Assembly: GCA_000004985.1 (NCBI GenBank) | Contig: GG738847.1 | Reading direction: 5' to 3' (one strand) | Source: Naegleria gruberi | Lineage: Eukaryota | DNA length: 64,000 bases | Shown: positions 9,226 to 63,466 of the stretch, piece by piece | Numbering within the stretch: position 1 is the stretch's first letter | Layout: each line of letters starts with the position of its first letter | Position numbers and translations under genes: made by a program | Notes under the pieces: generated by a model | Database searches by the model: none | What the model was told of the DNA's origin: nothing | What the model saw: only the letters and a program-made list of their open reading frames with translations

Positions 9226-9505
9226 NNNNNNNNNNNNNNNNNNNNNNNNNNNNNNNNNNNNNNNNNNNNNNNNNNNNNNNNNNNNNNNNNNNNNNNNNNN
9301 NNNNNNNNNNNNNNNNNNNNNNNNNNNNNNNNNNNNNNNNNNNNNNNNNNNNNNNNNNNNNNNNNNNNNNNNNNNNNNNNNNNNNNNNNNNNNNNNNNNN
9401 NNNNNNNNNNNNNNNNNNNNNNNNNNNNNNNNNNNNNNNNNNNNNNNNNNNNNNNNNNNNNNNNNNNNNNNNNNNNNNNNNNNNNNNNNNNNNNNNNNNN
9501 NNNNN
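9226..9505. other. Assembly gap, a run of 280 N.
   Basis: Literal n characters in the sequence. Confidence 1.
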
Positions 9506-13598: not shown

Positions 13599-13988
13599 NN
13601 NNNNNNNNNNNNNNNNNNNNNNNNNNNNNNNNNNNNNNNNNNNNNNNNNNNNNNNNNNNNNNNNNNNNNNNNNNNNNNNNNNNNNNNNNNNNNNNNNNNN
13701 NNNNNNNNNNNNNNNNNNNNNNNNNNNNNNNNNNNNNNNNNNNNNNNNNNNNNNNNNNNNNNNNNNNNNNNNNNNNNNNNNNNNNNNNNNNNNNNNNNNN
13801 NNNNNNNNNNNNNNNNNNNNNNNNNNNNNNNNNNNNNNNNNNNNNNNNNNNNNNNNNNNNNNNNNNNNNNNNNNNNNNNNNNNNNNNNNNNNNNNNNNNN
13901 NNNNNNNNNNNNNNNNNNNNNNNNNNNNNNNNNNNNNNNNNNNNNNNNNNNNNNNNNNNNNNNNNNNNNNNNNNNNNNNNNNNNNNNN
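13599..13988. other. Assembly gap, a run of 390 N.
   Basis: Literal n characters in the sequence. Confidence 1.
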
Positions 13989-16074: not shown

Positions 16075-17778
16075 TTGCTAGAGTCAGTGGCTTTGACAAC
16101 AATAACCACCACACACAACAATAATAATACTAATACCAATACTAATAATAATATTAACAATAACAATATTAACAATAATACTCATTGTCTTCCCAATGAC
16201 ATGTTAATAATAATATTTCAATTTCTCAATCAACAAGATTTTATTATAATGTCACTTGTTTGTAAATATTGGAGATTTGTTGGTCAACAACCATTCCGAA
16301 AGGAATTTACAAATTACAAATTATACCCCTCTTATTCAATGATTACTCCAACATTTATTACCAATTCATTTGAATTTTTTAATTTCTTTTCTTCCATAAC
16401 ATGCTATTTATTTAATACAGTACCTAAATCAACATTTAAAACTATTTTACTCTCTCAGAAATTACAAAGTTTATTTGTAGATTCTTGTTGTTTGGTTAAA
16501 AATATAATACCATTCCATTCAATGATAAAAAAACATTCCTCCAATAATATCACTGAATTGGGATTAAATTATAAAATGAAAAAGAAAGATTTACGTGCTC
16601 TATTTCAAGTACTTCCAAATTTGAAACATTTAAGTTTAGGAATGGGAGCAACAGAATGTTTAATTAGTACAGAATCATTTCTTAGTACATGTTGTCATAA
16701 ATTAGAATCACTCCATTTACAATTATTACCTGAAAATCATAAAAATATTGTAAAATTATTAAATGGAATATTTAATCCATCACTTTCAACAACAACAACA
16801 ATATCCAATCTCATTGATATTAGAATATTTATAACAGAATCTTATTCAATTAATAGAAAATTAATTTTACATTTGATTTTAATTCATTTCCATATTTAAA
16901 ATATTTATTTCTTGATATTACCTATATTTATACATTAGAATCAATTAGTAATGTATTATTAAATTCAACTAATATTTCAAAATTAATAGAATTTGGATTT
17001 GGAACTGTTAGAAAATCTATTGAAAAATTACATTTTAAAAATAGTGAAAATTTAAAAAATTTAAAAAAATTATTTTTAAATAGAACAGAAATGATGACAA
17101 ATATAGATAATCTTCCTTCATTAGAATTATTATATATAGATGAACATGAAAAAAAACATTGTTCCACTAAAAATTATTCAAAACCATGGAATTTAGCATT
17201 NNNNNNNNNNNNNNNNNNNNNNNNNNNNNNNNNNNNNNNNNNNNNNNNNNATTTTTGTTTTGATCTTACCATAATTTAGATTTATCTGAATTGAGTCAAT
17301 TAAATTTAGAAATATTAATTCTTAGAATTCCTGTCGAAAATTATAGGATATTTCATCACATTTCTAAAATATTAACATTGAGAGAATTAACATTTCATTC
17401 TCATAATATTTATGCAACTGATTTGAAATTACTTTGTAAATTACCAAATTTAGAATATCTTTACATTAGATTGGAACATAAAAGTGAAACATCTTTTACT
17501 TTTAATTCACTAACTACACTTTCAATTTATTCAGATAATTTGAAACAATTAAATTTCTTTCAAATATCAAATTTACCAAAATTGAAAACTTTAATGGTTC
17601 GTAATAATCGGGATAATAACCATAAATGGTGGTTGCAACCATTATTTCCAAATTTACAAATACTTGTTGCCAACAATACAGGAACATTTTTAGCATCTCC
17701 ATATAATGATGGTATGAATTTTGGTGCGTGTGATATTTTGCAAAGAATAACAAATTATGAATATGTAGCCCACTTTCC
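16075..17778 (+). CDS. F-box/LRR protein (LPNDMLIIIFQFLNQQDFIIMSLVCKYWRFV, then LRR-like LxxLxL units). It probably has several exons and spans the 50-N gap. The exon structure is uncertain.
   Basis: ORFs 16075..16899 and 17291..17791 plus an intervening open frame carry LRR periodicity. The first ATG may lie within or upstream of 16075. Confidence 0.45.
17201..17250. other. Assembly gap, a run of 50 N.
   Basis: Literal n characters in the sequence. Confidence 1.
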
Positions 17779-20204: not shown

Positions 20205-20788
20205 TTAAAGTTAATAATAATTAAATATATTACTACGAATAGAATTGTTGTTATTTAATGATTGATAATAATAATAATAATAATAGATTATAGATTGTTA
20301 TTGTTGTGATGATAATAACGGAGAGAATGATGAGAGATTTTTTTTTAAAAACCAAGACGGAGTTTTAAGCAACGGAATGATTCTTGTTGTAAACTAGAGA
20401 CCAGTTGCATTTGTGGTGTAGTTGAAAATTTTGATTGGTTAATTAATAATCATTTCAATATAATTGATTTTCAATTTGAATGGTTGAACATTAATAAGAA
20501 TGATTCTATTTAATAGTAAGTCTTAATGAACATATCTCAGTTAATTATACGTCTCACTCCAAGGAAATGGTAAAATTAGTACTCTGGATTATGCGGATTA
20601 AGAAATATCCCACTTCCAGATACTCATAACCTCAAGAATTATGAAAAATATGTGACCAAATTCATTGAGATTCAAATTCTTATTATCATCAATGTTAGTA
20701 TTAAAATTTTCATGTTTATTGTTAAATTAATAAATAATACAATTTATTATTAGAATAAAAATACAATCATTTTCTCTATTGAATAAAA

Positions 20789-21808
20789 TTATTGTTTAAG
20801 AGCAGCTTCAAGACCAGCAACAGTTCTAATTTGAACCCAATCACTCAAATCACCACCATAAACATGGGTACCACTTTGAATTTCACCTGATTTGAATTTT
20901 TGTTGCATAGCCTTGAATGAAACTGGACCTTGAGTTTCAACATTACTATCAACATAGAACCATTCACAATCAAATTGTTTTGGAATACTCAATGATGATG
21001 ATGATGATACATTAGGTGAAACCATAACACTTGCACTTCTAGACTTGCTTTGAGATGAAGTTGGTTGAATATGTGCGCTACTATTAGCAGTGCTGGAGGA
21101 TGAACTACTTTGAACAGGTGAAACAATTAAAGTGGAAGAATGATTCTTCAATTCTAACATTGTTTGAGACAATGCTGAATTCCATTCAATTAAATTTGCA
21201 CAAAGTTGTTGTATAGCAGGTTCATAAACAGATTGTTCCTTTTCCAAAATTTCTAAAATATGTTGTTTACACATAATATTAACTTCTTCCCATTTTTCTT
21301 TAAAAGTATTCATCTTCTCTTTAGCCTTTGGTAATTCAAGTGGATTCTTTGATTGTTTTTCAGTTAACTTTTCAACTTGTTGTCTATAATAATCATATTG
21401 AAGTGTTAAATCTTTTCTTTCTTTAAAAATCTTTTTAACAGGTTCGAATAAAACAAAATATTCGTTAGCAGGATTAACAACGGTTTGTGTTACATTGGAT
21501 TGGAATGGAAGAACACAATTAGTTTCAACAGATTTGGATACCTTTTCCAAGACCATACCTGCTTGTTCAATTCTAGCTGATCCTTGAGTATTAACATCAC
21601 GGAAATCTTCTGCTAAAAAGGCCAATGTTGTTGAAAAGGCATGGAAATTTTCAATCAATTGATTAGAATGTTTAACAAAATTTTCACAAGCCTTTTCTGC
21701 TGATTTAAACTTGTTAGAGAGAATGGAAAATTCTTCATCTTCAGTTTGTTCAGCTTTACCAAGTTTTGTTTTAATTGTTTGTGTACCAATAACCCAAAGT
21801 TTCTTCAT
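20789..21808 (-). CDS. BAR-domain-like N-terminus plus a C-terminal GYF domain protein (EWFYVDSNVETQGPVSFKAMQQKFKSGEIQSGTHVYGGDLSDWVQI).
   Basis: 339-aa ORF. The GYF signature W-Y-x-D-x-x-G-x-x-QGP-F is present. The N-terminus is coiled-coil/BAR-like. Confidence 0.55.
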   Translation of the reverse strand: MKKLWVIGTQTIKTKLGKAEQTEDEEFSILSNKFKSAEKACENFVKHSNQLIENFHAFSTTLAFLAEDFRDVNTQGSARIEQAGMVLEKVSKSVETNCVLPFQSNVTQTVVNPANEYFVLFEPVKKIFKERKDLTLQYDYYRQQVEKLTEKQSKNPLELPKAKEKMNTFKEKWEEVNIMCKQHILEILEKEQSVYEPAIQQLCANLIEWNSALSQTMLELKNHSSTLIVSPVQSSSSSSTANSSAHIQPTSSQSKSRSASVMVSPNVSSSSSLSIPKQFDCEWFYVDSNVETQGPVSFKAMQQKFKSGEIQSGTHVYGGDLSDWVQIRTVAGLEAALKQ

Positions 21809-22100
21809 CTATATTTTAAATATATTATAAATATTTGGAAGTATTATAGTAGTGAAGATGAATATTTAATAATATCATTTGACAATAATTAGTACCAAGG
21901 ATTAATCATTGATGATGATTTTGTTATTGTTGTTAAAATATTATTCGTAGAAGAGTATAATGAATTATCATTGATCGTCATCATGTAGAGAGCAAATGAT
22001 GATGAATGAATAATAAAACAATTAGCCTAAAATTTTCTTAGCAAGCTTGAGTACTAACCTTTAATTGTTATGTGTTTGAATATTTTTTAAAAATAAATAA

Positions 22101-22266
22101 ACACTGTCTTGCTACGTACTTATTGGAGGTCACAATCTCTGCGCCTCACAGTAACTTTGAAAGGCTTGTGTCGCTCGTCATCCATTGAAGTACGAACTTG
22201 GATTCTAATTAGAAACGCAACAAAGGAATATTCATGTACTGTGGTGAGGGACTTTTTGTACAGTGT
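22101..22266 (+). ncRNA. Candidate structured ncRNA, or a conserved promoter module. It is a ~165-nt GC-richer island with terminal complementarity (acactgt...acagtgt) and an internal long-range stem (cctcacagta / tactgtggtgagg). It has a U-run after GGGAC (GGGACUUUUUG, Sm-site-like) and the palindrome TCTAATTAGA at 22204-22213.
   Basis: Sharp compositional contrast with the flanking intergenic DNA, which is ~85% AT. The stems were seen by eye. The strand is not established. Confidence 0.25.
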
Positions 22267-22704
22267 TAAATTAGTATGAGATGATTGTTTATTTCTAAGA
22301 ATGAAATAGAAGATAAGGAATAAATGTATTAAACAATTGAGGATGTATTGATGGGTTATTAATATAATATATTACTCATTCCTTTTCAATACTATTTAAT
22401 ACTCTTTATTGTTATCATTACAATGATATTAACAGTAGTTGCAAAAATCTTGATCATTCTAATTAAATTTTAAATTGCAAGAAATATGTATAATGTATTT
22501 CTAATTTTTAGATAAATATTACTAGCAGTAATCCTTACTAAAATTGAAATTGTAATTTTTTACTTTCTTGTTACAACAATCAACCTTTAAATATCATTTT
22601 AAATTTCCAAATATATAAATTTTAATATTTTGATAACCAATTAGATGCAATCATGCAAAACACATTTCCCGCCATTTTTTGTACAATTTATTCAAAGTAA
22701 AAAA

Positions 22705-24918
22705 ATGTCCTCCAACAATCCACGTGGATTCAATCAACAACAAAACATTAATAGGAGAGAATTATCATTCAATGTTGTTGGAGTTGGAAAACAAAACTCA
22801 AATACATCAACTAATACAACTTCAAATGGTGGTTCATCTTCTCCTACCACTAATTCTACAACAAATAATGTTGTTACTTCTACAACCAATAGTAAGCCTT
22901 CAAATACATCACCTAAATCATCAAAATCATCTTCATCATCAGCCAATAGTACAAGTAGTCAGAGACAAGCTAACAATGCACCAATTAAAAGTAGTACACC
23001 ACTCACAAAACAATCCTCTGGAACACAACTCACTACTCGAAGTGGAGTTGAAAGTTCTTCCTCTTCTGCTGCTATCAGTAAGAGATTGACTAGTGCTGCC
23101 ACAACAGTTAGTAGTACAACAAGTAACTCAATCAAATCAACAAGTTCATCCATTGCACTCTCATCTGCTTCATCTTCATCAAATCTTCTTCAAACAGTTC
23201 TAAGTAAGGAAGAAGAGGCTGAACTAATTAAAGAATTGTGTGGCGAAGAAATGTACCTATTATTAATATCAAGTAAACATCAAGAAAGAGAAGAATTTCT
23301 AACACGTTTAAATGTATGGATTAATCAATCATCTAATTTACCACATGGATTTATGATTTTTCCAAGTGTAAATTTACCAATTGAAAAGACAAGAGTATTA
23401 AAAGTACTTGCTATTATTCTAAGAATGACACTAGTTGATAAAATTATTAAAATAGTGCAATTAGCATATTCAACATGTATTTTATTAGTTGAATCAGCAC
23501 CAGTACAACAAGCAAAGAATATAACACATTTAAAAGAAGGTCTTTCACAAATATTACCATTATTGATGACTAAAGTAATTGATTCAAATGAAAGAAACTC
23601 TAAGAGTGCTATACAAGCAGTAACAAAAATGTCAACAGTTAAAGTAATTTCTAAATTAGTATTTAATTATGCATTACTATCAATTAATTCAGGTAAACCA
23701 TTATCACCTAAAGCTATTCAAGGTAGAATTTCACTTGTAGAATCACTTGTTTTAAAACATGGATTGAATAATAGTAGTTTAGAAGTTTCAATTCAATTTT
23801 TAGATTTTTTAAATGAATGTTTAACACATAAAACAGTTCAAGTTAAAGATTCATGTATTGAGTTATTAGCAATAATGCATAAATCAATGGGAAAGGAATT
23901 ATTTGATTTAAATGTAATGGATAAATTACCTTCAAAAACATCAACACTTGTACAAAAATTAGAAATTAAAATTAGAGCTAAAAAACAAGAAGAAATTGAA
24001 GAAGAAAAAAAGAAGGAAGAATTAAAAAATCAAAAAACACAAAATGAAACTAATATAGTATTTAAACAAGGTGATATATCGAGAGAATTAATAATGAAAA
24101 AATCACTTAAAAAAATTCAATCAGGTGAATCAATTCGATCATTTTTAAAATCACTAACACATTTACATTTTGATTCATGTAATATTTCTAAAATTATTAA
24201 TTTAGAACATTGTCCAAATTTAAGAGTTTTATATTTATATGATAATAGAATTACTAAAATAGAAGGATTAAATAATAACAAACAATTAATACATTTACAT
24301 TTACATCACAATTTAATTGAAAAAATTGAAGGATTGGATGAATTGGTTAATTTACAACAATTATATTTAAATAATAATAGAATTAAAATTGTTGAAAATT
24401 TAACAAAATTACAAAAACTACAAGAATTACATTTACAACAACAAGATATTGAAAATTCAATGATTTTAGATTCAGATTCAATGAAATCACTTTCAAATTC
24501 ATTAACTTTATTGGATTTAAGTAATAACAAGATTGAAGATTCACTTTCTATTGGATTTTTAGAAAATTTAATTGAATTGGATTTGAGTAAAAACAGAATT
24601 GATAAAATGGATCAAATTTTATTCATTTTAGAAAGTAATAGACAATTACACTCTTTAAATTTAATTGGAAATTCTGTATGCGATTCTTATAAAATGAGAG
24701 ATCAAATCATTGTTTCAAGTAGTTCAGATTTAACTTTATTAAATCAAGTGGAAATTACAGATATTCAGAGAGAATTTTTATTATCATTTGAACATCAAAA
24801 ATTAAAAAGAACATCAAGTGATAATAATGGAATGAATTTGGCTTTACATAATAATAGACAGACAAATAGTAATGAAAATGATCCAAACTTTTTAAAAGAT
24901 TTATTAACAATAAATTAA
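22705..24918 (+). CDS. Leucine-rich repeat protein. The N-terminus is S/T-rich, the centre is an alpha-helical HEAT/TOG-like region, and the C-terminus has SDS22-type LRRs (LxxLxLxxNxIxxIEGL).
   Basis: 757-aa ORF (the track starts at 22645 with an alternative start; the first ATG is at 22705). At least 8 LRR units lie between about 24180 and 24700. Confidence 0.6.
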   Translation: MSSNNPRGFNQQQNINRRELSFNVVGVGKQNSNTSTNTTSNGGSSSPTTNSTTNNVVTSTTNSKPSNTSPKSSKSSSSSANSTSSQRQANNAPIKSSTPLTKQSSGTQLTTRSGVESSSSSAAISKRLTSAATTVSSTTSNSIKSTSSSIALSSASSSSNLLQTVLSKEEEAELIKELCGEEMYLLLISSKHQEREEFLTRLNVWINQSSNLPHGFMIFPSVNLPIEKTRVLKVLAIILRMTLVDKIIKIVQLAYSTCILLVESAPVQQAKNITHLKEGLSQILPLLMTKVIDSNERNSKSAIQAVTKMSTVKVISKLVFNYALLSINSGKPLSPKAIQGRISLVESLVLKHGLNNSSLEVSIQFLDFLNECLTHKTVQVKDSCIELLAIMHKSMGKELFDLNVMDKLPSKTSTLVQKLEIKIRAKKQEEIEEEKKKEELKNQKTQNETNIVFKQGDISRELIMKKSLKKIQSGESIRSFLKSLTHLHFDSCNISKIINLEHCPNLRVLYLYDNRITKIEGLNNNKQLIHLHLHHNLIEKIEGLDELVNLQQLYLNNNRIKIVENLTKLQKLQELHLQQQDIENSMILDSDSMKSLSNSLTLLDLSNNKIEDSLSIGFLENLIELDLSKNRIDKMDQILFILESNRQLHSLNLIGNSVCDSYKMRDQIIVSSSSDLTLLNQVEITDIQREFLLSFEHQKLKRTSSDNNGMNLALHNNRQTNSNENDPNFLKDLLTIN

Positions 24919-31994: not shown

Positions 31995-32067
31995 GCTGGC
32001 GTAGCTCAGTCGGTAGAGCGTTGGTCTAATAAGCCATTGGTCGCCGGTTCGATCCCGTCCGTCAGCA
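31995..32067 (+). tRNA. tRNA-Ile, anticodon AAU (anticodon loop CTAATAA), 73 nt, no intron.
   Basis: Cloverleaf: acceptor GCTGGCG/CGTCAGC with one G-U pair, D-arm GCTC-AGTCGGTA-GAGC, T-arm GCCGG-TTCGATC-CCGTC, 5-nt variable loop. Confidence 0.8.
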
Positions 32068-32181: not shown

Positions 32182-32952
32182 TTGGTTGAAGATTGTACTT
32201 TCATGGAAGAGCTATTAGTGCAGAGGGATTATTACAATATTAAAGTAGGTGATTGGGATACAAATACTATGCTATTGAGTCATGATCATTTATTCACTTT
32301 ATTTCTGGAAGATGGTTACAAAATTACATTTGTTTGTGAAACTGATGATTACAAAAATAACCCATACATTCCAAGGAAGGGTGAATATCCAATAATTTCA
32401 ATTCAATTATCAAGCTGGAGATCTGGTTGTTTTATTCTCGATACTAATAGTGTTAATATTACAAAGCCATTAATGAGAGAAGGTATTTCACTTGTTGATT
32501 CAAAAAAATATTCAATGTTTTCAGTGTTTGAAGTTAAAATATGTTATGAAGTGATTGATCACAATTTTGAGTCTGAAATCTTTTGCGATTCAATATATAT
32601 TCTAGTAACAAAAAAGTATGAACAAAAGCTAGAAGCTAATCCTTATTCTATAATGTGGAAAGTTTGTAACAGAAAAGGTTTTGAATCAAATGTTAGAAAG
32701 GTGAAGACCCCAAGCTCAACTTACTATCCTGAAATTAGAGGGTTAAAAAATAAGGCCTGCTTTATAGACCAGGGAAGAAAACTAAAACTGCTTACAAGTT
32801 TCTATGGTTATAATTATCTAAAAGTAGAGCCTGAAGATTTATATGAATCAGATTTTTGGGACTATATCTATTTTACAAAAGTTTACCCTTCTTGGAATTT
32901 TATTGATTCAGATTCCATAGCAAGACTGGAAAATTGTTTTTTGGCTACCTGA
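32182..32952 (+). CDS. Hypothetical 256-aa ORF starting 115 bp downstream of the tRNA. Its composition and codon usage are atypical (cag/agg/ctg/aag) and it has no low-complexity tracts.
   Basis: ORF only. No recognisable domain. It lies inside a GC-richer island at about 32100-33520. Confidence 0.3.
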   Translation: MVEDCTFMEELLVQRDYYNIKVGDWDTNTMLLSHDHLFTLFLEDGYKITFVCETDDYKNNPYIPRKGEYPIISIQLSSWRSGCFILDTNSVNITKPLMREGISLVDSKKYSMFSVFEVKICYEVIDHNFESEIFCDSIYILVTKKYEQKLEANPYSIMWKVCNRKGFESNVRKVKTPSSTYYPEIRGLKNKACFIDQGRKLKLLTSFYGYNYLKVEPEDLYESDFWDYIYFTKVYPSWNFIDSDSIARLENCFLAT

Positions 32953-33024: not shown

Positions 33025-33046
33025 ACCATCCCAGCGCTGGGATGGT
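33025..33046. repeat. Perfect 22-bp palindrome accatcccagcgctgggatggt.
   Basis: Read from the sequence. It is its own reverse complement. Confidence 0.9.
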
Positions 33047-33553
33047 AAGCTTAAAAATTCTCCACCAGCTAGTCTTGCTATGTATTGGAGACTTTGAAGA
33101 GGACAATTTGAAACAAGTGATAACTAAAGAAATTAGGGGACGGAATTGGAAATTTGTAGGCCATGCTGAAGATAATTTCTACATTGTTTTAAACTTTACT
33201 AGAGATTTACAAAGATTAACCTTGTCAGTATGTGTTGTGAATTACGACAATATTAAAAAGATGATCAACAAGTAGAATGCCTTTTCTTCATAAACAAATT
33301 GTTGGATATGGCTATACATTGCTTTCTTTATTTCTGTTTCGTACAGCCATCATACGTTGCACAAAGATTTCATCCCATTATTAGCTGAAATGTAATTGAG
33401 TTTGGTATTTACAGCCAGAAAGACTGGAGAGACAATTATTATTATTGAAAATCACTGCACGTCTTTTAAAGTATTCTTTCTTTGGAAATGAAAAGGAAGT
33501 AAATAGTCAACTATTTAGTGTTTTTAAATATTGAAAATCCGTTAAATATTTGC

Positions 33554-37082: not shown

Positions 37083-38573
37083 TTAATCTAATAAATCTTG
37101 AACAGTTTCTAAAATGAAAGGTGAATCATGTTTTAAATCCATTCTCTTGGTTGGAATTTTAAATGGTAAATTTAATTTACAATATTTATCTAAATTTTCA
37201 TTATTTACTTCCTTTTCTTGTGAATTATTTTCTAAATTATTTTCTGAATTAAAATTATTTAATTTAAAAATAACTCCAAGTTCATAATTTGAAATATATA
37301 ATTGTGTTCCATTTTTTTGTAATTTACCCAAAGCAGGTTGACTCAAATTGTGACTTCCAACAAAAATATAACCATTTTTTAAATTTTCCAAATGTAGTAA
37401 TATTTTAGAGTGTGCTAAATGATTTGCCTGATTTGGTGAGTAGTGTGTCATTAAATGTTTTGGAAATGTTGAAGTTTCAAATGTTTTACTTTTTAAATGT
37501 ATCATTCCACCACATCTAAGTCCAAAATGACTTGAAGATACACTTTCCAAACTAGGAAATACTATATTAAAATTATTACAATCTTTTAAATAAAAACTTG
37601 AACTTAATTCTTTAATCCAATCTAAATTCATTGATCCAATACTTGACATTTGATAATATAATGGTGATTGTTTTAAATTTAATATTTCATTTTTAGTAAA
37701 ATTCATTCTTTCAATTGCTTTTTTAATTGCTAAATGTCCATATTTATCTTTTTCTATATTTGTATGATATCCAGGAATTGAAGGTATTAATTCACCTTTA
37801 GCATTTGAATAATCATATTTTCTCAAAAAATTACCTGGAATACCATCTGTTAATTTTGTCCAAAATTCAACAAGTGTATTTTCAAATTGATTTGTATTAT
37901 TATTAGATATATTTTCCTTTTTAGGAAAGTCTTGTATCCAAATACATTGTTTAAAAAAGCTCCAATCAAAGTCAGTTAAATTAGCAGATGAAACAACAAT
38001 TCTAATAAAATCATCAAATTCGATAATAAATAATTTAGCATGCATATTAGAATAAGCACCTAATAAAGAAGGATGACAAACACAAACAGGACATGATCCT
38101 ATTTTTAGAAATTCCTTTCCTTTTTTTTCTTCTTTTTGATTCCAATGTTTTGAAATAGTAATTGGTAATTCAAATTTAGTAAATGGAATGATTGTTTTTA
38201 AAAAATCAAAATCTAAACAATAACTTGATAAAAATAAACTTTTAGCCTTTTCAATATTTAATATTTCTTTTAGAGTAATTAAATTTCTAGAATTATTAGA
38301 ATCATTAACTAGTTTGTTAAAATAAATTTCATTTCCATTATATTTTAATGATTTACTTGATGATGAATTATTTGAAATATTGTTACTATTTGATGTGGTA
38401 TTGGTTGATTGTTTGGTTGATGATTTGGATGAAGATGTAATAGAAGAGGAATTTGATTGTTGTTGTTTTTTATCGGATGATGGTTTTGATTTTTTATAGG
38501 ATACTAATTGAATTGCTTCATCATCACTACTTTCTTCATCACTACTGATAATGTAGACTGCTGATCTTTTCAT
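37083..38573 (-). CDS. tdp1: Tyrosyl-DNA phosphodiesterase 1 (TDP1), PLD superfamily, with two HKN motifs (HAKLFIIEF...SSANLT and HSKILLHL...GSHNLSQPALG).
   Basis: Both catalytic HxK(x)n N motifs are present at the expected spacing. 496 aa, single exon. Confidence 0.85.
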   Translation of the reverse strand: MKRSAVYIISSDEESSDDEAIQLVSYKKSKPSSDKKQQQSNSSSITSSSKSSTKQSTNTTSNSNNISNNSSSSKSLKYNGNEIYFNKLVNDSNNSRNLITLKEILNIEKAKSLFLSSYCLDFDFLKTIIPFTKFELPITISKHWNQKEEKKGKEFLKIGSCPVCVCHPSLLGAYSNMHAKLFIIEFDDFIRIVVSSANLTDFDWSFFKQCIWIQDFPKKENISNNNTNQFENTLVEFWTKLTDGIPGNFLRKYDYSNAKGELIPSIPGYHTNIEKDKYGHLAIKKAIERMNFTKNEILNLKQSPLYYQMSSIGSMNLDWIKELSSSFYLKDCNNFNIVFPSLESVSSSHFGLRCGGMIHLKSKTFETSTFPKHLMTHYSPNQANHLAHSKILLHLENLKNGYIFVGSHNLSQPALGKLQKNGTQLYISNYELGVIFKLNNFNSENNLENNSQEKEVNNENLDKYCKLNLPFKIPTKRMDLKHDSPFILETVQDLLD

Positions 38574-38586
38574 ATTTTTTAATTTA

Positions 38587-38596
38587 TTGGCGCCAA
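38587..38596. promoter_or_regulatory. Palindromic E2F-type site TTGGCGCCAA in the TDP1 promoter, which is the SMC1 3' intergenic region.
   Basis: TTTGGCGC consensus on both strands. Confidence 0.35.
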
Positions 38597-38679
38597 ACTT
38601 TTTTGAAGTTCGAGTAAAATTTCGAATTGACTTGCATAATAAAAATTTTTAAGTTTTTGAATAGTAATTTTACAAATAA

Positions 38680-42743: not shown

Positions 42744-42773
42744 GGCGCGAAATGCTGTGAATTTGGCGGGAAA
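42744..42773. promoter_or_regulatory. Tandem E2F-type sites (GGCGCGAAA and TTTGGCGGGAAA) in the divergent SMC1/Sfi1-like promoter. A third site, cTTGGCGC, is at 42908-42915.
   Basis: Canonical TTTSSCGC motifs. They lie between two divergently transcribed genes involved in chromosome segregation. Confidence 0.4.
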
Positions 42774-42949
42774 CTTTTCTATTATTTAAAAGAATTTTTA
42801 AATCTTAGAAATCATTTTGTTACTGTGAAGATATCCTTAAGTATTAGATAGAACAAGTTTATCAGTATTAGAATATTAATTCTGTTGTTGTATTTTATCA
42901 CACTAAACTTGGCGCTCTTCAAAATACAATTTAAATTTAGCCTTAAAAA

Positions 42950-58066: not shown

Positions 58067-59911
58067 TTATTTCTCTGCTACTTTAATAGAAGCACCATTT
58101 TGTACAGTTTGGGATGATACAGGCTTACTACAGGTTGGGTTAGCAATTTGAATATCTCTTCTAACCTTCTTTGCAGCTTCTTCTTGTTCTTCTAACCTTT
58201 CTCTCTTAATCTTGGCAACAATTTCAGCTGTTGTTTCTGTTGGAGATGGTGGTTTATATCTAACTGGATGGAGAACTTTGGTTTCCCTTTGGTAAACCAT
58301 CTTAGTTTGAGGAGATCCAACAGGAGTGATTGGTGTTTGTTCACCAGTACTTGTAGAGCTACTTACAGTTCTACAAGGAGTACCAGTAACAGGTTGAGAT
58401 TCTGCAGGAGAGGTTGAAACAATAACAGGTGTTGATTGAAGCTTTTGTTGTGGTGGCACTGGTTGTGGAGGATAACCCATTTGATGTGGAGGATAAGCCA
58501 TTGGATATCCGTGAGGTGGATATGGGTATGTAGCTTGATCTGGATGTGGTGGGTATGAATAACCAGGTTGAGGAGGATATGGATAAGGTGGAACAGTACC
58601 AGATTGTGGATATGAATATCTGTAATCATAATAGTAAGGAGGAACATAAGGTGGTTGTTGAGGTTGTCCATCTTTAGATTCTGTTGGTTGAGGTGGATAA
58701 GCACCTGGTGGTGGAACAGAAGTTTGAGGTGGATAATACATTGGATATGGAACAGGTTGTGAACCATCATGTGTTGGTGGAGGAACACCATATGGATAAT
58801 GATAACCTGGATGTGGTGGATACATATGAGGATAACCTGGGTGTGGAGGATATGGAGGATATGAATAAGCAGTACCTGTTGTTGGTTGTGGAACTGGTCT
58901 TGGAGGTTGATGAGCAACAACTCCATGAGTAGTTGGTTGTTGTTGGACAGTTGTACTTGTTGTTGTTGGAGCTGAGGTTGAACTAGTTGTGCTTGGAACA
59001 GGTGTAGTAGTTGTTGTAGTATTGGAAGCAGATCTGTTAACATTGTGCAATTTATCCAAAGCTTCAAGTGCCAAAGCTTCTTCACTCTTCATCTTTTGAG
59101 CAACTGGTGATTTACCCTTATTCAATTGGAAACAAGAGAATAATTGATCACCACTTGCTGATGATTCTTCAACTTGTTGTGCTTGTGTATTTTTACCAGA
59201 AGTAATATTACATCTCTTTCTATATGGCCATCTTCTAATACCTAATTCTCTACATCTCTTCTTCAGTGATGATTCATCAACTCTTAAAGCAACGCATGCT
59301 TCATGTAAAGGTAATTTGAAATATTGTGAAATGGAAAGATAACTTAAATTAGCAGCATTATTAACAAAGTAGTCTGATGGTGGTGGACTTCTAAAGCTCT
59401 TGGCAATATGAGGAGTGGAGGAAGATACTTGTGGAGAGAGATGGGCATTAGCAATGGAAGGTATCGATACGATTGGGGTAGGTGTAGTTGGTTGTGGTGG
59501 AATTTGTTGTGGTTGGGTGGTAGATGTGGTTATTGTTGTTGGAATGTGAGAAGTTGGGATGGTTTCAACACGTGTTGTTGAAATGGTAGTTGGTTGTGAA
59601 GGGATTTCTTGTCGAGGTTGAGGTGAATATGATTCAACAGAACTCGATGTAGAGGAGTGATCAACCAATGGTGTAGTATTTCTTGGGATTGGTTCATGTG
59701 TACTAGGATCATAGGTTTGAAGTTTGGCCCACAATGGATCAGCAGCATAATTAGTTGAAATGACGGTTCTCATATTATATTTTGTTATTACATCATTCAT
59801 TCCTAATTCTTCATGTTTCAGAACATCAGTAACGAGGTAGTAAATATTATTTCTACTGATTAAATCTTTACGAACAAAGTTGGTGTTGGTGGTGCCTGTT
59901 GAGTGCATCAT
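58067..59911 (-). CDS. RWP-RK domain transcription factor (LKKRCRELGIRRWPYRK) with a long Pro/Tyr/Gln-rich, PPxY-like C-terminal tail.
   Basis: The exact RWPYRK motif with the upstream helix LHEACVALRVDESSLKKRCRELGI. Single exon of 614 aa. Confidence 0.75.
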   Translation of the reverse strand: MMHSTGTTNTNFVRKDLISRNNIYYLVTDVLKHEELGMNDVITKYNMRTVISTNYAADPLWAKLQTYDPSTHEPIPRNTTPLVDHSSTSSSVESYSPQPRQEIPSQPTTISTTRVETIPTSHIPTTITTSTTQPQQIPPQPTTPTPIVSIPSIANAHLSPQVSSSTPHIAKSFRSPPPSDYFVNNAANLSYLSISQYFKLPLHEACVALRVDESSLKKRCRELGIRRWPYRKRCNITSGKNTQAQQVEESSASGDQLFSCFQLNKGKSPVAQKMKSEEALALEALDKLHNVNRSASNTTTTTTPVPSTTSSTSAPTTTSTTVQQQPTTHGVVAHQPPRPVPQPTTGTAYSYPPYPPHPGYPHMYPPHPGYHYPYGVPPPTHDGSQPVPYPMYYPPQTSVPPPGAYPPQPTESKDGQPQQPPYVPPYYYDYRYSYPQSGTVPPYPYPPQPGYSYPPHPDQATYPYPPHGYPMAYPPHQMGYPPQPVPPQQKLQSTPVIVSTSPAESQPVTGTPCRTVSSSTSTGEQTPITPVGSPQTKMVYQRETKVLHPVRYKPPSPTETTAEIVAKIKRERLEEQEEAAKKVRRDIQIANPTCSKPVSSQTVQNGASIKVAEK

Positions 59912-60209
59912 CTTTGTTGGTTATTGTTTTGTTGTGTTTTTATTTGTTTGTGAGAATTTTGTGTGAGGCTTCTTTGGAAAACTCTAGGCCACAACAAAGC
60001 AGCTAGTTGCGTTGTTTGCGAGATGACTTGTTTGCTTTACTTATTTTGACGTAAGGAATGGAAAATAAAGGGTTAACAAACGAACTTTGAGCCGCTTAAA
60101 CGTCTTTATATTCAAGCGCCCTTTGGACGATGTTTCCAAATATGAATTTTGTAAATTTTTGGGACTGACGGCAAACAACAGACATTGACGAAAACCAACG
60201 AAGGAGGAC

Positions 60210-60219
60210 TCTAATTAGA
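60210..60219. promoter_or_regulatory. Palindrome TCTAATTAGA inside a ~45-nt block conserved with 22170-22220 (acgaa..gga.tctaattagaa.cgca). It lies in a GC-richer island at about 59950-60240, upstream of the RWP-RK gene.
   Basis: Alignment by eye of the two islands. A TAATTA homeodomain-type core. Confidence 0.3.
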
Positions 60220-60464
60220 ACGCATGAGAATTAATTTACCATCTATATTAAAACGTATTGTACCGTTTTGTATTTAAAATAATATTCTGGACTTTATTAA
60301 AAGATGCATGAAGAAAATTTGGTCTCTAACTTTTAATCCATCATTCCAGACTGTTGTTAATTCCTCAAATGGTTTTGTGATGAAAATTTTCATTGGATAT
60401 TTTCCAATATAACTGTATTTTACAATGTCTTGCCTTCTTTAACAGAAAGTTTTGAAAACTCAAA

Positions 60465-62971: not shown

Positions 62972-63466
62972 TTAATGGTGACCATGATGACCATGTGGAT
63001 TTTCCTTTCTTTCCTTAGCAATTTGATGAGCAACATATTCCATCAAATCAGTGTTAGAAAAAGTACCAGACTTGAATTTTTCAAAGTTTCCAACCATGAG
63101 AGCCTTGCAAACACCAGAATCCAATTGCTTGGAACAGATGGTTTCAATAGTTTCATCTTGGTTATCCAATGATTTTCCTTGCTTCTTGAGTTCTTCAACT
63201 TGACATTGAATATCCTTGCAAGCTAAAATAATATTGTTATAATCCGCCAATACATTTTTTTAAAATTACGTACAATTCTTCAAAGTTTTATACATTGGAG
63301 AATCAGAGACAACACCAGTCATATCAGTTTTTGGAGAACCGGCAGCAATGTGAGTAGTGAAGAGAACACCACCAACACCCAAGAAGAGTTTGGTCAAAAA
63401 ACGAGAGGACATTTTTTTTAAAGTATTTACAAAAAATTTAAAGTACCCAAGACAATCAAAAAGCAA
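62972..63466 (-). CDS. Small putative secreted Cys-containing, His-tailed protein. Its signal-peptide-like N-terminus is MSSRFLTKLFLGVGGVLFTTHIAAG. It may have one ~52-nt intron (GTACGT...TTTTAG) joining the two ORFs.
   Basis: ORFs 63266..63466 and 62972..63250. Hydrophobic N-terminus. C-terminal HGHHGHH. Confidence 0.35.

Follow-up and report, generated by a model that had tools for sequence, protein, structure and literature searches.

What is a GC-richer island doing in the AT-rich spacer between two divergent genes of Naegleria gruberi? The window analysed here is a stretch of 64,000 nucleotides (nt) of contig GG738847.1 (assembly GCA_000004985.1); the island occupies positions 22101-22266 and is placed within an 836-nt spacer that has the 5' end of the BAR-GYF open reading frame (ORF) on one side and the 5' end of an LRR ORF on the other. 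Its GC content is 0.422, compared to 0.216 (21809-22100) and 0.196 (22267-22644) in the flanks and to 0.29 and 0.25 in ORF and non-ORF DNA of the whole window. Measured in 100-120 nt windows, the island reached 0.44-0.45, and its value of 0.44 (120-nt windows) was equalled in non-ORF DNA only by the region of a tRNA-Ile, a probable coding stretch at ~33000 and a small coding exon at ~63300. The compositional anomaly is real, and both the GC figures and the ORF positions bear out the initial annotation of a GC-richer island between divergent genes, although the flanks are 78-80% AT and not ~85% AT as had been given for the intergenic DNA. We tentatively propose, giving this claim close to an even chance, that the island is the non-coding exon 1 or promoter-proximal 5' leader of the BAR-GYF mRNA and that 22058-21809 is a conserved intron in its 5' untranslated region (5'UTR). 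The features concerned are the following (a slash marks an exon-intron boundary here and below):

22101-22266, minus strand: GC-richer island, GC 0.42; proposed non-coding exon 1 or 5' leader, possibly part of the promoter, of BAR-GYF, from its composition and from stretches at the same position in relatives
22078-22088, minus strand: conserved motif AAAAAATATTC, 19 nt upstream of the donor; an identical colinear 11-mer is found in three Naegleria species
22053-22059, minus strand: proposed 5' splice donor AAAG/GTTAGT, with the end of exon 1 at 22059 and the start of the intron at 22058; equivalent donors are found in relatives
21809-22058, minus strand: proposed 5'UTR intron of 250 nt, GC ~0.2, with five ATGs, ending in TATAG at the start codon; read from the sequence, with splicing presumed
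20789-21808, minus strand: BAR-GYF coding sequence, 339 aa; an ORF with PF03114 (BAR) and PF14237 (GYF_2)
22645-24918, plus strand: LRR ORF, from the ORF list

The 339-aa BAR-GYF product is 100% identical to a predicted protein of N. gruberi, a member of the Heterolobosea; the assignment to the Dictyostelids on which a comparison had initially been suggested was wrong. The BAR-GYF loci of N. lovaniensis (L002), N. fowleri (L003, L004), a Naegleria sp. from metagenomes (L005, L006) and Willaertia magna (L007) were compared; L005 and L006 are identical over the region and thus uninformative as a close-strain comparison. A further contig (L001), from the ENA metagenome ERZ929261, is 99.6% identical to window positions 20720-21848 and ends 40 nt upstream of the ATG; we conclude from this identity that the sample contained an N. 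gruberi-like amoeba. The island itself was not found by blastn in the syntenic loci of N. lovaniensis, N. fowleri, Naegleria sp. or Willaertia. All four Naegleria lineages have a GC-richer stretch (0.40-0.48) at a distance of 250-450 nt before the BAR-GYF ATG, and in the counterparts it begins immediately past the upstream gene's stop codon. Except for short blocks, the bodies of the counterparts cannot be aligned, and this holds even for the two sister species, N. lovaniensis and N. fowleri; at non-coding sites, the divergence of N. gruberi from the other lineages has reached saturation. In N. lovaniensis, N. fowleri and the third Naegleria lineage, extra genes of ~450 aa and ~243 aa are located between LRR and BAR-GYF; despite these two extra genes in three of the lineages, the GC-richer stretch stays with the BAR-GYF gene in all four.

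At the edge of the island that faces BAR-GYF, the 11-mer AAAAAATATTC is exactly the same in N. gruberi, N. lovaniensis and N. fowleri, with a gap to the donor of 19, 13 and 19 nt, respectively, and the fourth lineage (Naegleria sp.) has an A-run, CCAAAAAAAAATAACC, and then C/GTAAGT. The donors found at the equivalent place, G/GTAAGT in N. lovaniensis (L002 ~5662), G/GTAAGT in N. fowleri (L003 ~1946) and C/GTAAGT in Naegleria sp. (L005 ~3086), each come after the GC-richer stretch and an A-rich motif. GTTAGT fits the intron donors found elsewhere in the window, which are GTAGGT, GTTTGT, GTAAGT, GTATGT and GTGGGT. The chance expectation of G-GT[AT]AGT, estimated by us from base composition, is ~0.065 per strand in the 836-nt spacer, and since the donor heptamer is present at the same relative place in four lineages, we take it to reflect conservation and not chance. 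The AT-rich stretch past the donor is 250-450 nt long in the four lineages and has many ATGs, and an AG is found at or within ~50 nt of the BAR-GYF ATG in every lineage; in N. gruberi, the BAR-GYF strand has a canonical GT donor (22059/22058) and an AG acceptor, TATAG/ATG (21809/21808). Five ATGs would be unlikely in a mature leader and, therefore, the ATG-laden spacer fits an intron; the presumed 115-nt leader of an SMC-like gene in the window has no ATG. Motifs of the type ATGATGA or GATGATGA recur in the AT-rich spacer of all Naegleria lineages (window 21880-22000; L002 5720-5830; L003 1960-2200). A box C/D small nucleolar RNA (snoRNA) within the proposed intron was considered and rejected, since no CUGA box D was found on reading and the C/D scores in N. 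lovaniensis, 16-19 bits, were below threshold.

From these elements, the following course of expression is conceivable, in which three things are our inference: that the island is transcribed, where transcription starts and that the intron is spliced out. The start site would be inside the island or a short way upstream of it, perhaps close to the palindrome TCTAATTAGA, and the transcript would run for ~150-210 nt through GC-richer sequence that carries a short upstream ORF (uORF). The leader would then pass AAAAAATATTC and end at the donor AAAG/GTTAGT (exon end 22059), and removal of the 250-nt AT-rich intron (22058-21809) would join it to the start codon at 21808. Splicing would drop the upstream ATGs and set the start codon in the context TTAAAG-ATG, which is nearer than ATATAG-ATG to the A-rich start contexts of other genes. 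Two further features are within the proposed leader:

22120-22185, minus strand: uORF of 21 codons (MDDERHKPFKVTVRRRDCDLQ), from the reading of ORFs
22204-22213, no strand: perfect palindrome TCTAATTAGA, a possible transcription-factor site or start-proximal element; its function is conjectural

Neither N. lovaniensis nor N. fowleri has conserved the uORF peptide MDDERHKPFKVTVRRRDCDLQ. The palindrome has the colinear counterparts GATTAGAATTGAGTTTCTAA in N. lovaniensis and GATTAGAAC in N. fowleri, and a CCAAT box (TCCAAT, minus-sense) is found in the island at ~22133-22128.

The linkage to BAR-GYF and the conserved motif with its donor point to a 5' leader exon together with promoter sequence. 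The initial annotation had offered a shared cis-regulatory element as one of two options, and this option came closer to what the comparison revealed, in that the island travels with BAR-GYF and ends in a conserved motif and a donor; the part that made it a module shared with a second island found no statistical support. The arrangement is like that of known genes with a non-coding first exon and a 5'UTR intron, in which a leader precedes a GT donor, an AT-rich segment ends with AG at the start codon, upstream ATGs are spliced out and a short uORF is present, and the donor is conserved in four congeners. It differs in that the proposed leader, with a GC content of 0.42, is much GC-richer than the coding exons of the window (0.29), which is atypical of a plain UTR. 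If the proposal is true, one Naegleria gene model is extended by a first exon that is non-coding and unannotated, by a uORF and by an intron conserved in the 5'UTR, and AAAAAATATTC and the palindrome TCTAATTAGA become candidate elements for the almost unstudied promoters and leaders of the Heterolobosea. Such a result would be useful for annotation and unsurprising.

Several observations weigh against a transcribed leader. Look-ups of the exact protein gave only contigs that are colinear with the genome. The GC content of the island is far above that of coding DNA (0.29), which UTR status does not explain, and start codons in the window are not in general preceded by a GC peak. Blocks such as GATGATG..TTGATCATT.CC, which are conserved between N. 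lovaniensis and N. fowleri within the proposed intron, could be promoter footprints and would then put the start site near the ATG. AAAAAATATTC could be a TATA-like element, given its promoter-like position at the SMC-like gene, where it closely follows two E2F-like sites and precedes the ATG by ~135 nt. Finally, the GC-rich stretch could be the 3'UTR of the upstream gene, since it starts right after a stop codon in N. lovaniensis and N. fowleri.

Among the alternatives, a non-transcribed cis-regulatory module, that is an upstream activating region of BAR-GYF or of the divergent pair with AAAAAATATTC as TATA-like element and with TCTAATTAGA and the CCAAT box as sites, is unlikely but deserves to be weighed first. 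The position of AAAAAATATTC at the SMC-like gene is the classical core-promoter layout, and the island is located between divergent genes. Moreover, the island has the short colinear motifs GATTAGAA, GTTTCTAA and CCAAGT(T)CG in common with N. lovaniensis and N. fowleri while the rest of it is unalignable, and short shared motifs in an otherwise unalignable island are the pattern of binding-site footprints. The locus shares with RNA polymerase II (Pol II) promoters of the TATA-box and upstream-element type an A/T-rich AAAAAATATTC, found also in the SMC-like promoter, and a CCAAT box and a palindrome further upstream; unlike them, it has a perfect splice-donor consensus 13-19 nt downstream at an unfixed spacing, followed by 250 ATG-rich nt. 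With a TATA box at 22078-22088, the start site would coincide with the conserved GGTWAGT, leaving no first exon and a 250-nt leader with five upstream ATGs, and a spacing of 13 versus 19 nt between AAAAAATATTC and GGTWAGT is unexpected for a pair of TATA box and initiator. GGTAAGT is the canonical donor consensus and, to our knowledge, no known initiator. With regard to the other gene of the divergent pair, an E2F-like site, TTTCCCGCC (22668-22676), is found close to the start of the LRR gene itself, ~400 nt from the island, and for this reason the island is unlikely to be the LRR promoter.

E2F-like sites (TTTCCCGCC, TTTCGCGCC, TTTGGCGCC) were found at 42745-42775, 22665-22676 and 38590-38600, just upstream of the starts of three genes: the SMC-like gene (ATG 42575, minus strand), the LRR gene and a gene on the minus strand whose ATG is at 38573. 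Since the site at the LRR gene lies between the ATGs at 22645 and 22705, the second ATG is suggested to be the true start.

An independent, fast-evolving and Naegleria-specific gene for a small non-coding RNA (ncRNA), syntenic with BAR-GYF, is quite improbable. Such a gene could be minus-sense and end at the T-run ATTTATTTTT (22098-22089), which adjoins the island, or it could be plus-sense and extend from past the A/T-rich box 22078-22099 to the T5 run at 22253-22257. GC-rich islands are a signal used for finding structural RNAs in AT-rich genomes, and a GC content of 0.42 within a spacer of 20% GC is such a signal. In addition, T-runs follow the GC-rich body in BAR-GYF sense (T5 in N. gruberi, T4 in N. 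lovaniensis and T4 in N. fowleri), the position upstream of BAR-GYF is kept in four lineages, the island has complementary ends and could form an internal stem. The end arms acactgt (22101-22107) and acagtgt (22260-22266) match over 12/14 nt when extended, of which 8 nt are perfect, and cgcctcacagta (22142-22153) is able to pair with tactgtggtgaggg (22237-22250) if three bases are bulged out. These motifs, like gggactttttg (22248-22258) and the palindrome, had been pointed out initially and are all in place. The stems that had been described are present, too, but the structure does not exceed chance: the minimum free energy (MFE) of the island is within ~1 standard deviation of dinucleotide shuffles (z-scores of -1.1 on the plus and -1.0 on the minus strand; -0.5 and -0.6 in a second run), and the 836-nt spacer contains 35 inverted pairs of >=10 nt. 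The motifs of the island are present but not beyond chance.

The covariance-model search that had been recommended was done with Rfam 15, with the gathering score as cut-off for the whole window and with E<=10 for both the island (21900-22500) and a second island described below, as well as for the N. lovaniensis counterpart. At gathering score, a tRNA-Ile was the sole match in the 64-kb window. This tRNA-Ile (anticodon AAT; 31995-32067, plus strand; 59.9 bits) was also found by ARAGORN. At E<=10, nothing overlapped either island, the N. lovaniensis counterpart yielded nothing of relevance, and the counterpart loci of the relatives gave no match at gathering score; hence, a known RNA family was rejected. 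Models of Sm-class small nuclear RNAs (snRNAs; U1, U2, U4, U5, U11, U12, U4atac) did not match, neither in the window at gathering score nor in 21900-22500 at E<=10. A regular-expression scan found no canonical Sm site, RAU(3-6)GR, on either strand of the island; the only U-run motif, ACUUUUUGU (22251-22259), has no following stem-loop and is outside this consensus, so that the Sm-site-like element noted at first is none. Neither TGATGA nor CTGA, the box C/D motifs, was found on either strand of 22085-22285. H/ACA-like features on the plus strand were an ACA at 22260-22262 and a possible hinge AAAGGA with ~35 nt between them, without an Rfam H/ACA match.

The folding comparison that had been proposed for related intergenic regions was done on Naegleria. 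The MFE z-scores of the counterparts ranged from -2.5 to +1.1 on both strands in all lineages; only the N. lovaniensis sense strand (-2.5) was below -2, and the others were within -1.1 to +1.1. RNAalifold on three poorly aligned sequences, an analysis of low power, gave a consensus energy of -0.05 kcal/mol with 3 pairs. The lack of an alignable body and of a consensus structure speaks against a conserved structured RNA. Neither was a second copy of the island found in the 64-kb window or in the JGI metagenomes.

A likeness to Sm-class snRNAs exists in the size of ~165 nt, the GC content above that of the surroundings and the U-run ACUUUUUGU near one end. The differences are the missing model match at E<=10, the unmet Sm consensus and the missing 3' stem-loop past the U-run; moreover, snRNAs are conserved among species, whereas the island is not conserved between Naegleria species. 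By our own reading, ACUUAUUGG faintly recalls the 5' end of U1 and CAUCCAUUGAAG the loop of its stem-loop II. A divergent U1 was rejected, because ACUUAUUGG differs from the U1 motif ACUUACCUG and would need G-U pairs at invariant donor positions, because no covariance-model score was obtained and because the sequence shows no conservation between species. On its opposite strand, the conserved block reads ACTAACC, ACTTACC or ACTTACG among the species, and this variation also counts against U1, since donor sites vary and U1 does not. Box C/D and H/ACA snoRNAs are of similar length, and the ACA triplet (22260-22262) is 3-4 nt from the distal end of the island; unlike snoRNAs, the island has no RUGAUGA or CUGA on either strand and no Rfam snoRNA match, and the interval from AAAGGA to ACA is, by our reading, too short for a pseudouridylation hairpin. 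Some RNAs of Naegleria may be too divergent for standard models, because U1 of N. gruberi required an unfiltered Infernal search, a step that Lopez et al. 2008 (PMC2396436) kept for RNAs missed by their standard screen. The more specific claim that the island encodes a rapidly evolving, Naegleria-specific RNA of ~150-170 nt and of no described family, linked to BAR-GYF in at least four lineages, diverged beyond alignability and maybe transcribed by RNA polymerase III with an end at the T-run, is more doubtful still. If true, it would add a new entry, a lineage-specific syntenic RNA, to the poorly catalogued ncRNAs of Naegleria. In sum, Rfam, folding, the search for box C, box D and Sm sites and the comparison among Naegleria species all failed to lend weight to an snRNA- or snoRNA-like gene, and the small-RNA interpretation of the island is unsupported.

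The last of the rival accounts, which we hold to be distinctly improbable, is that the island is a functionless relic, for example the former 3'UTR of the 243-aa gene, left by a deletion that removed the 450-aa and 243-aa genes, and that it has so far escaped decay into AT-rich sequence like that around it. Gene order was compared between window positions 21809-22644 and L002 2595-6000, L003 1-2403 and L005 1160-3328. Neither gene was detectable in the N. gruberi window, and the 243-aa family, which has the conserved C-terminus EDDENFEYNDELNFLI..FDL..K..FMPYIY, had no N. gruberi member in the protein collection searched. Between the island and the BAR-GYF ATG there are 458 nt, compared to 420-678 nt between stop codon and ATG in the other lineages, and between the island and the LRR ATG there are 378 nt, compared to 477 nt in N. 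lovaniensis. These distances are compatible with both genes having been cleanly deleted in N. gruberi, and the comparison documents the loss of two neighbour genes relative to N. lovaniensis, N. fowleri and the third lineage. A relic would also match N. lovaniensis and N. fowleri, in which the 243-aa gene is followed, directly past its stop codon, by the start of the GC-rich stretch. It is at odds with the sharp GC contrast of 0.42 versus 0.20, although non-coding divergence from the other lineages is saturated, and with the conserved motif and donor at the island edge, which show constraint on at least the proximal part. Furthermore, no protein-coding remnant was found. The plus-strand open frame of the island, 56-60 codons, has no ATG and matched the 450-aa neighbour protein no better than shuffles did (p = 0.8), and when the neighbour proteins were compared with the spacer by tblastn, all E values were >0.04; therefore, the idea of a small exon, or of coding sequence left over from the two lost genes, was rejected. 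Exact look-ups of the 56-aa and 38-aa ORF products gave no match.

Other origins were also considered: foreign DNA was rejected since blastn of the island against plasmid and phage collections was without match, and for a remnant of a miniature inverted-repeat transposable element or DNA transposon the inverted ends (12/14) have no flanking direct duplication and blastn found no second copy in the window. The sequence strings of the island were not found in the text of the published papers searched.

The initial annotation had also described a block of ~45 nt as conserved in a second island at 60170-60225. The two islands agree at 23/28 positions with one gap (blastn E = 0.33), and the gapped alignment of 58-63 nt has a score of 19, which four unrelated 95-nt segments of the window equal or exceed. 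Although a pairwise shuffle test gave p = 0.0005-0.003, the similarity is at chance level for a 64-kb window. A search for the shared motif in the JGI metagenomes gave one contig, which is unrelated, bacterial-like and of 45-60% GC, and was discarded. The second island (~59912-60230) is located directly upstream of an RWP-RK gene (58067-59911, minus strand; ATG 59911) and is probably a leader of ~300 nt with a 28-codon uORF (MSVVCRQSQKFTKFIFGNIVQRALEYKDV), as judged from its sequence; ~190 nt of its sense strand past the uORF have no ATG. CAAAATAAGTAAARCAAA is also found upstream of the RWP-RK orthologue in the related contig L011, which does not reach the motif and palindrome region because it ends 189 nt upstream of the ATG. 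A U12-like reading of the plus strand of this island (GUAAGGAA, AAUUUUUGG) was rejected, since Rfam gave no match and GUAAGGAA is not kept in L011. CTAATTAG was found twice in the window, in the first island and at 60211-60218, where 1.3 occurrences are expected. Relative to the minus-strand gene downstream, the palindrome is oriented alike in both islands, and a uORF comes after it; this arrangement fits a start-proximal element but lacks statistical support.

As regards the other GC-rich stretches of the window, the small exon at 63293-63415 (GC 0.44; minus strand, ATG ~63415) encodes MSSRFLTKLFLGVGGVLFTTHIAAGSPKTDMTGVVSDSPMYK..., which looks like a short hydrophobic N-terminus, and demonstrates that some GC islands in non-ORF DNA are short coding exons. 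A likeness of the first island to the GC-rich stretch at 33070 (GTCTTGCTAYGTA..TTGGAG) was treated as chance (p ~0.05; the stretch is in a probable coding exon). Runs of N, presumably assembly gaps, are present at 9226-9505 (280 nt), 13599-13988 (390 nt) and 17201-17250 (50 nt). A perfect 20-nt palindrome, CCATCCCAGCGCTGGGATGG, is located at 33029-33048 with the flanks CTAGCTGG...CCAGCTAG, in a GC-rich (0.44) stretch between the ORFs 32182-32952 and 33042-33275.

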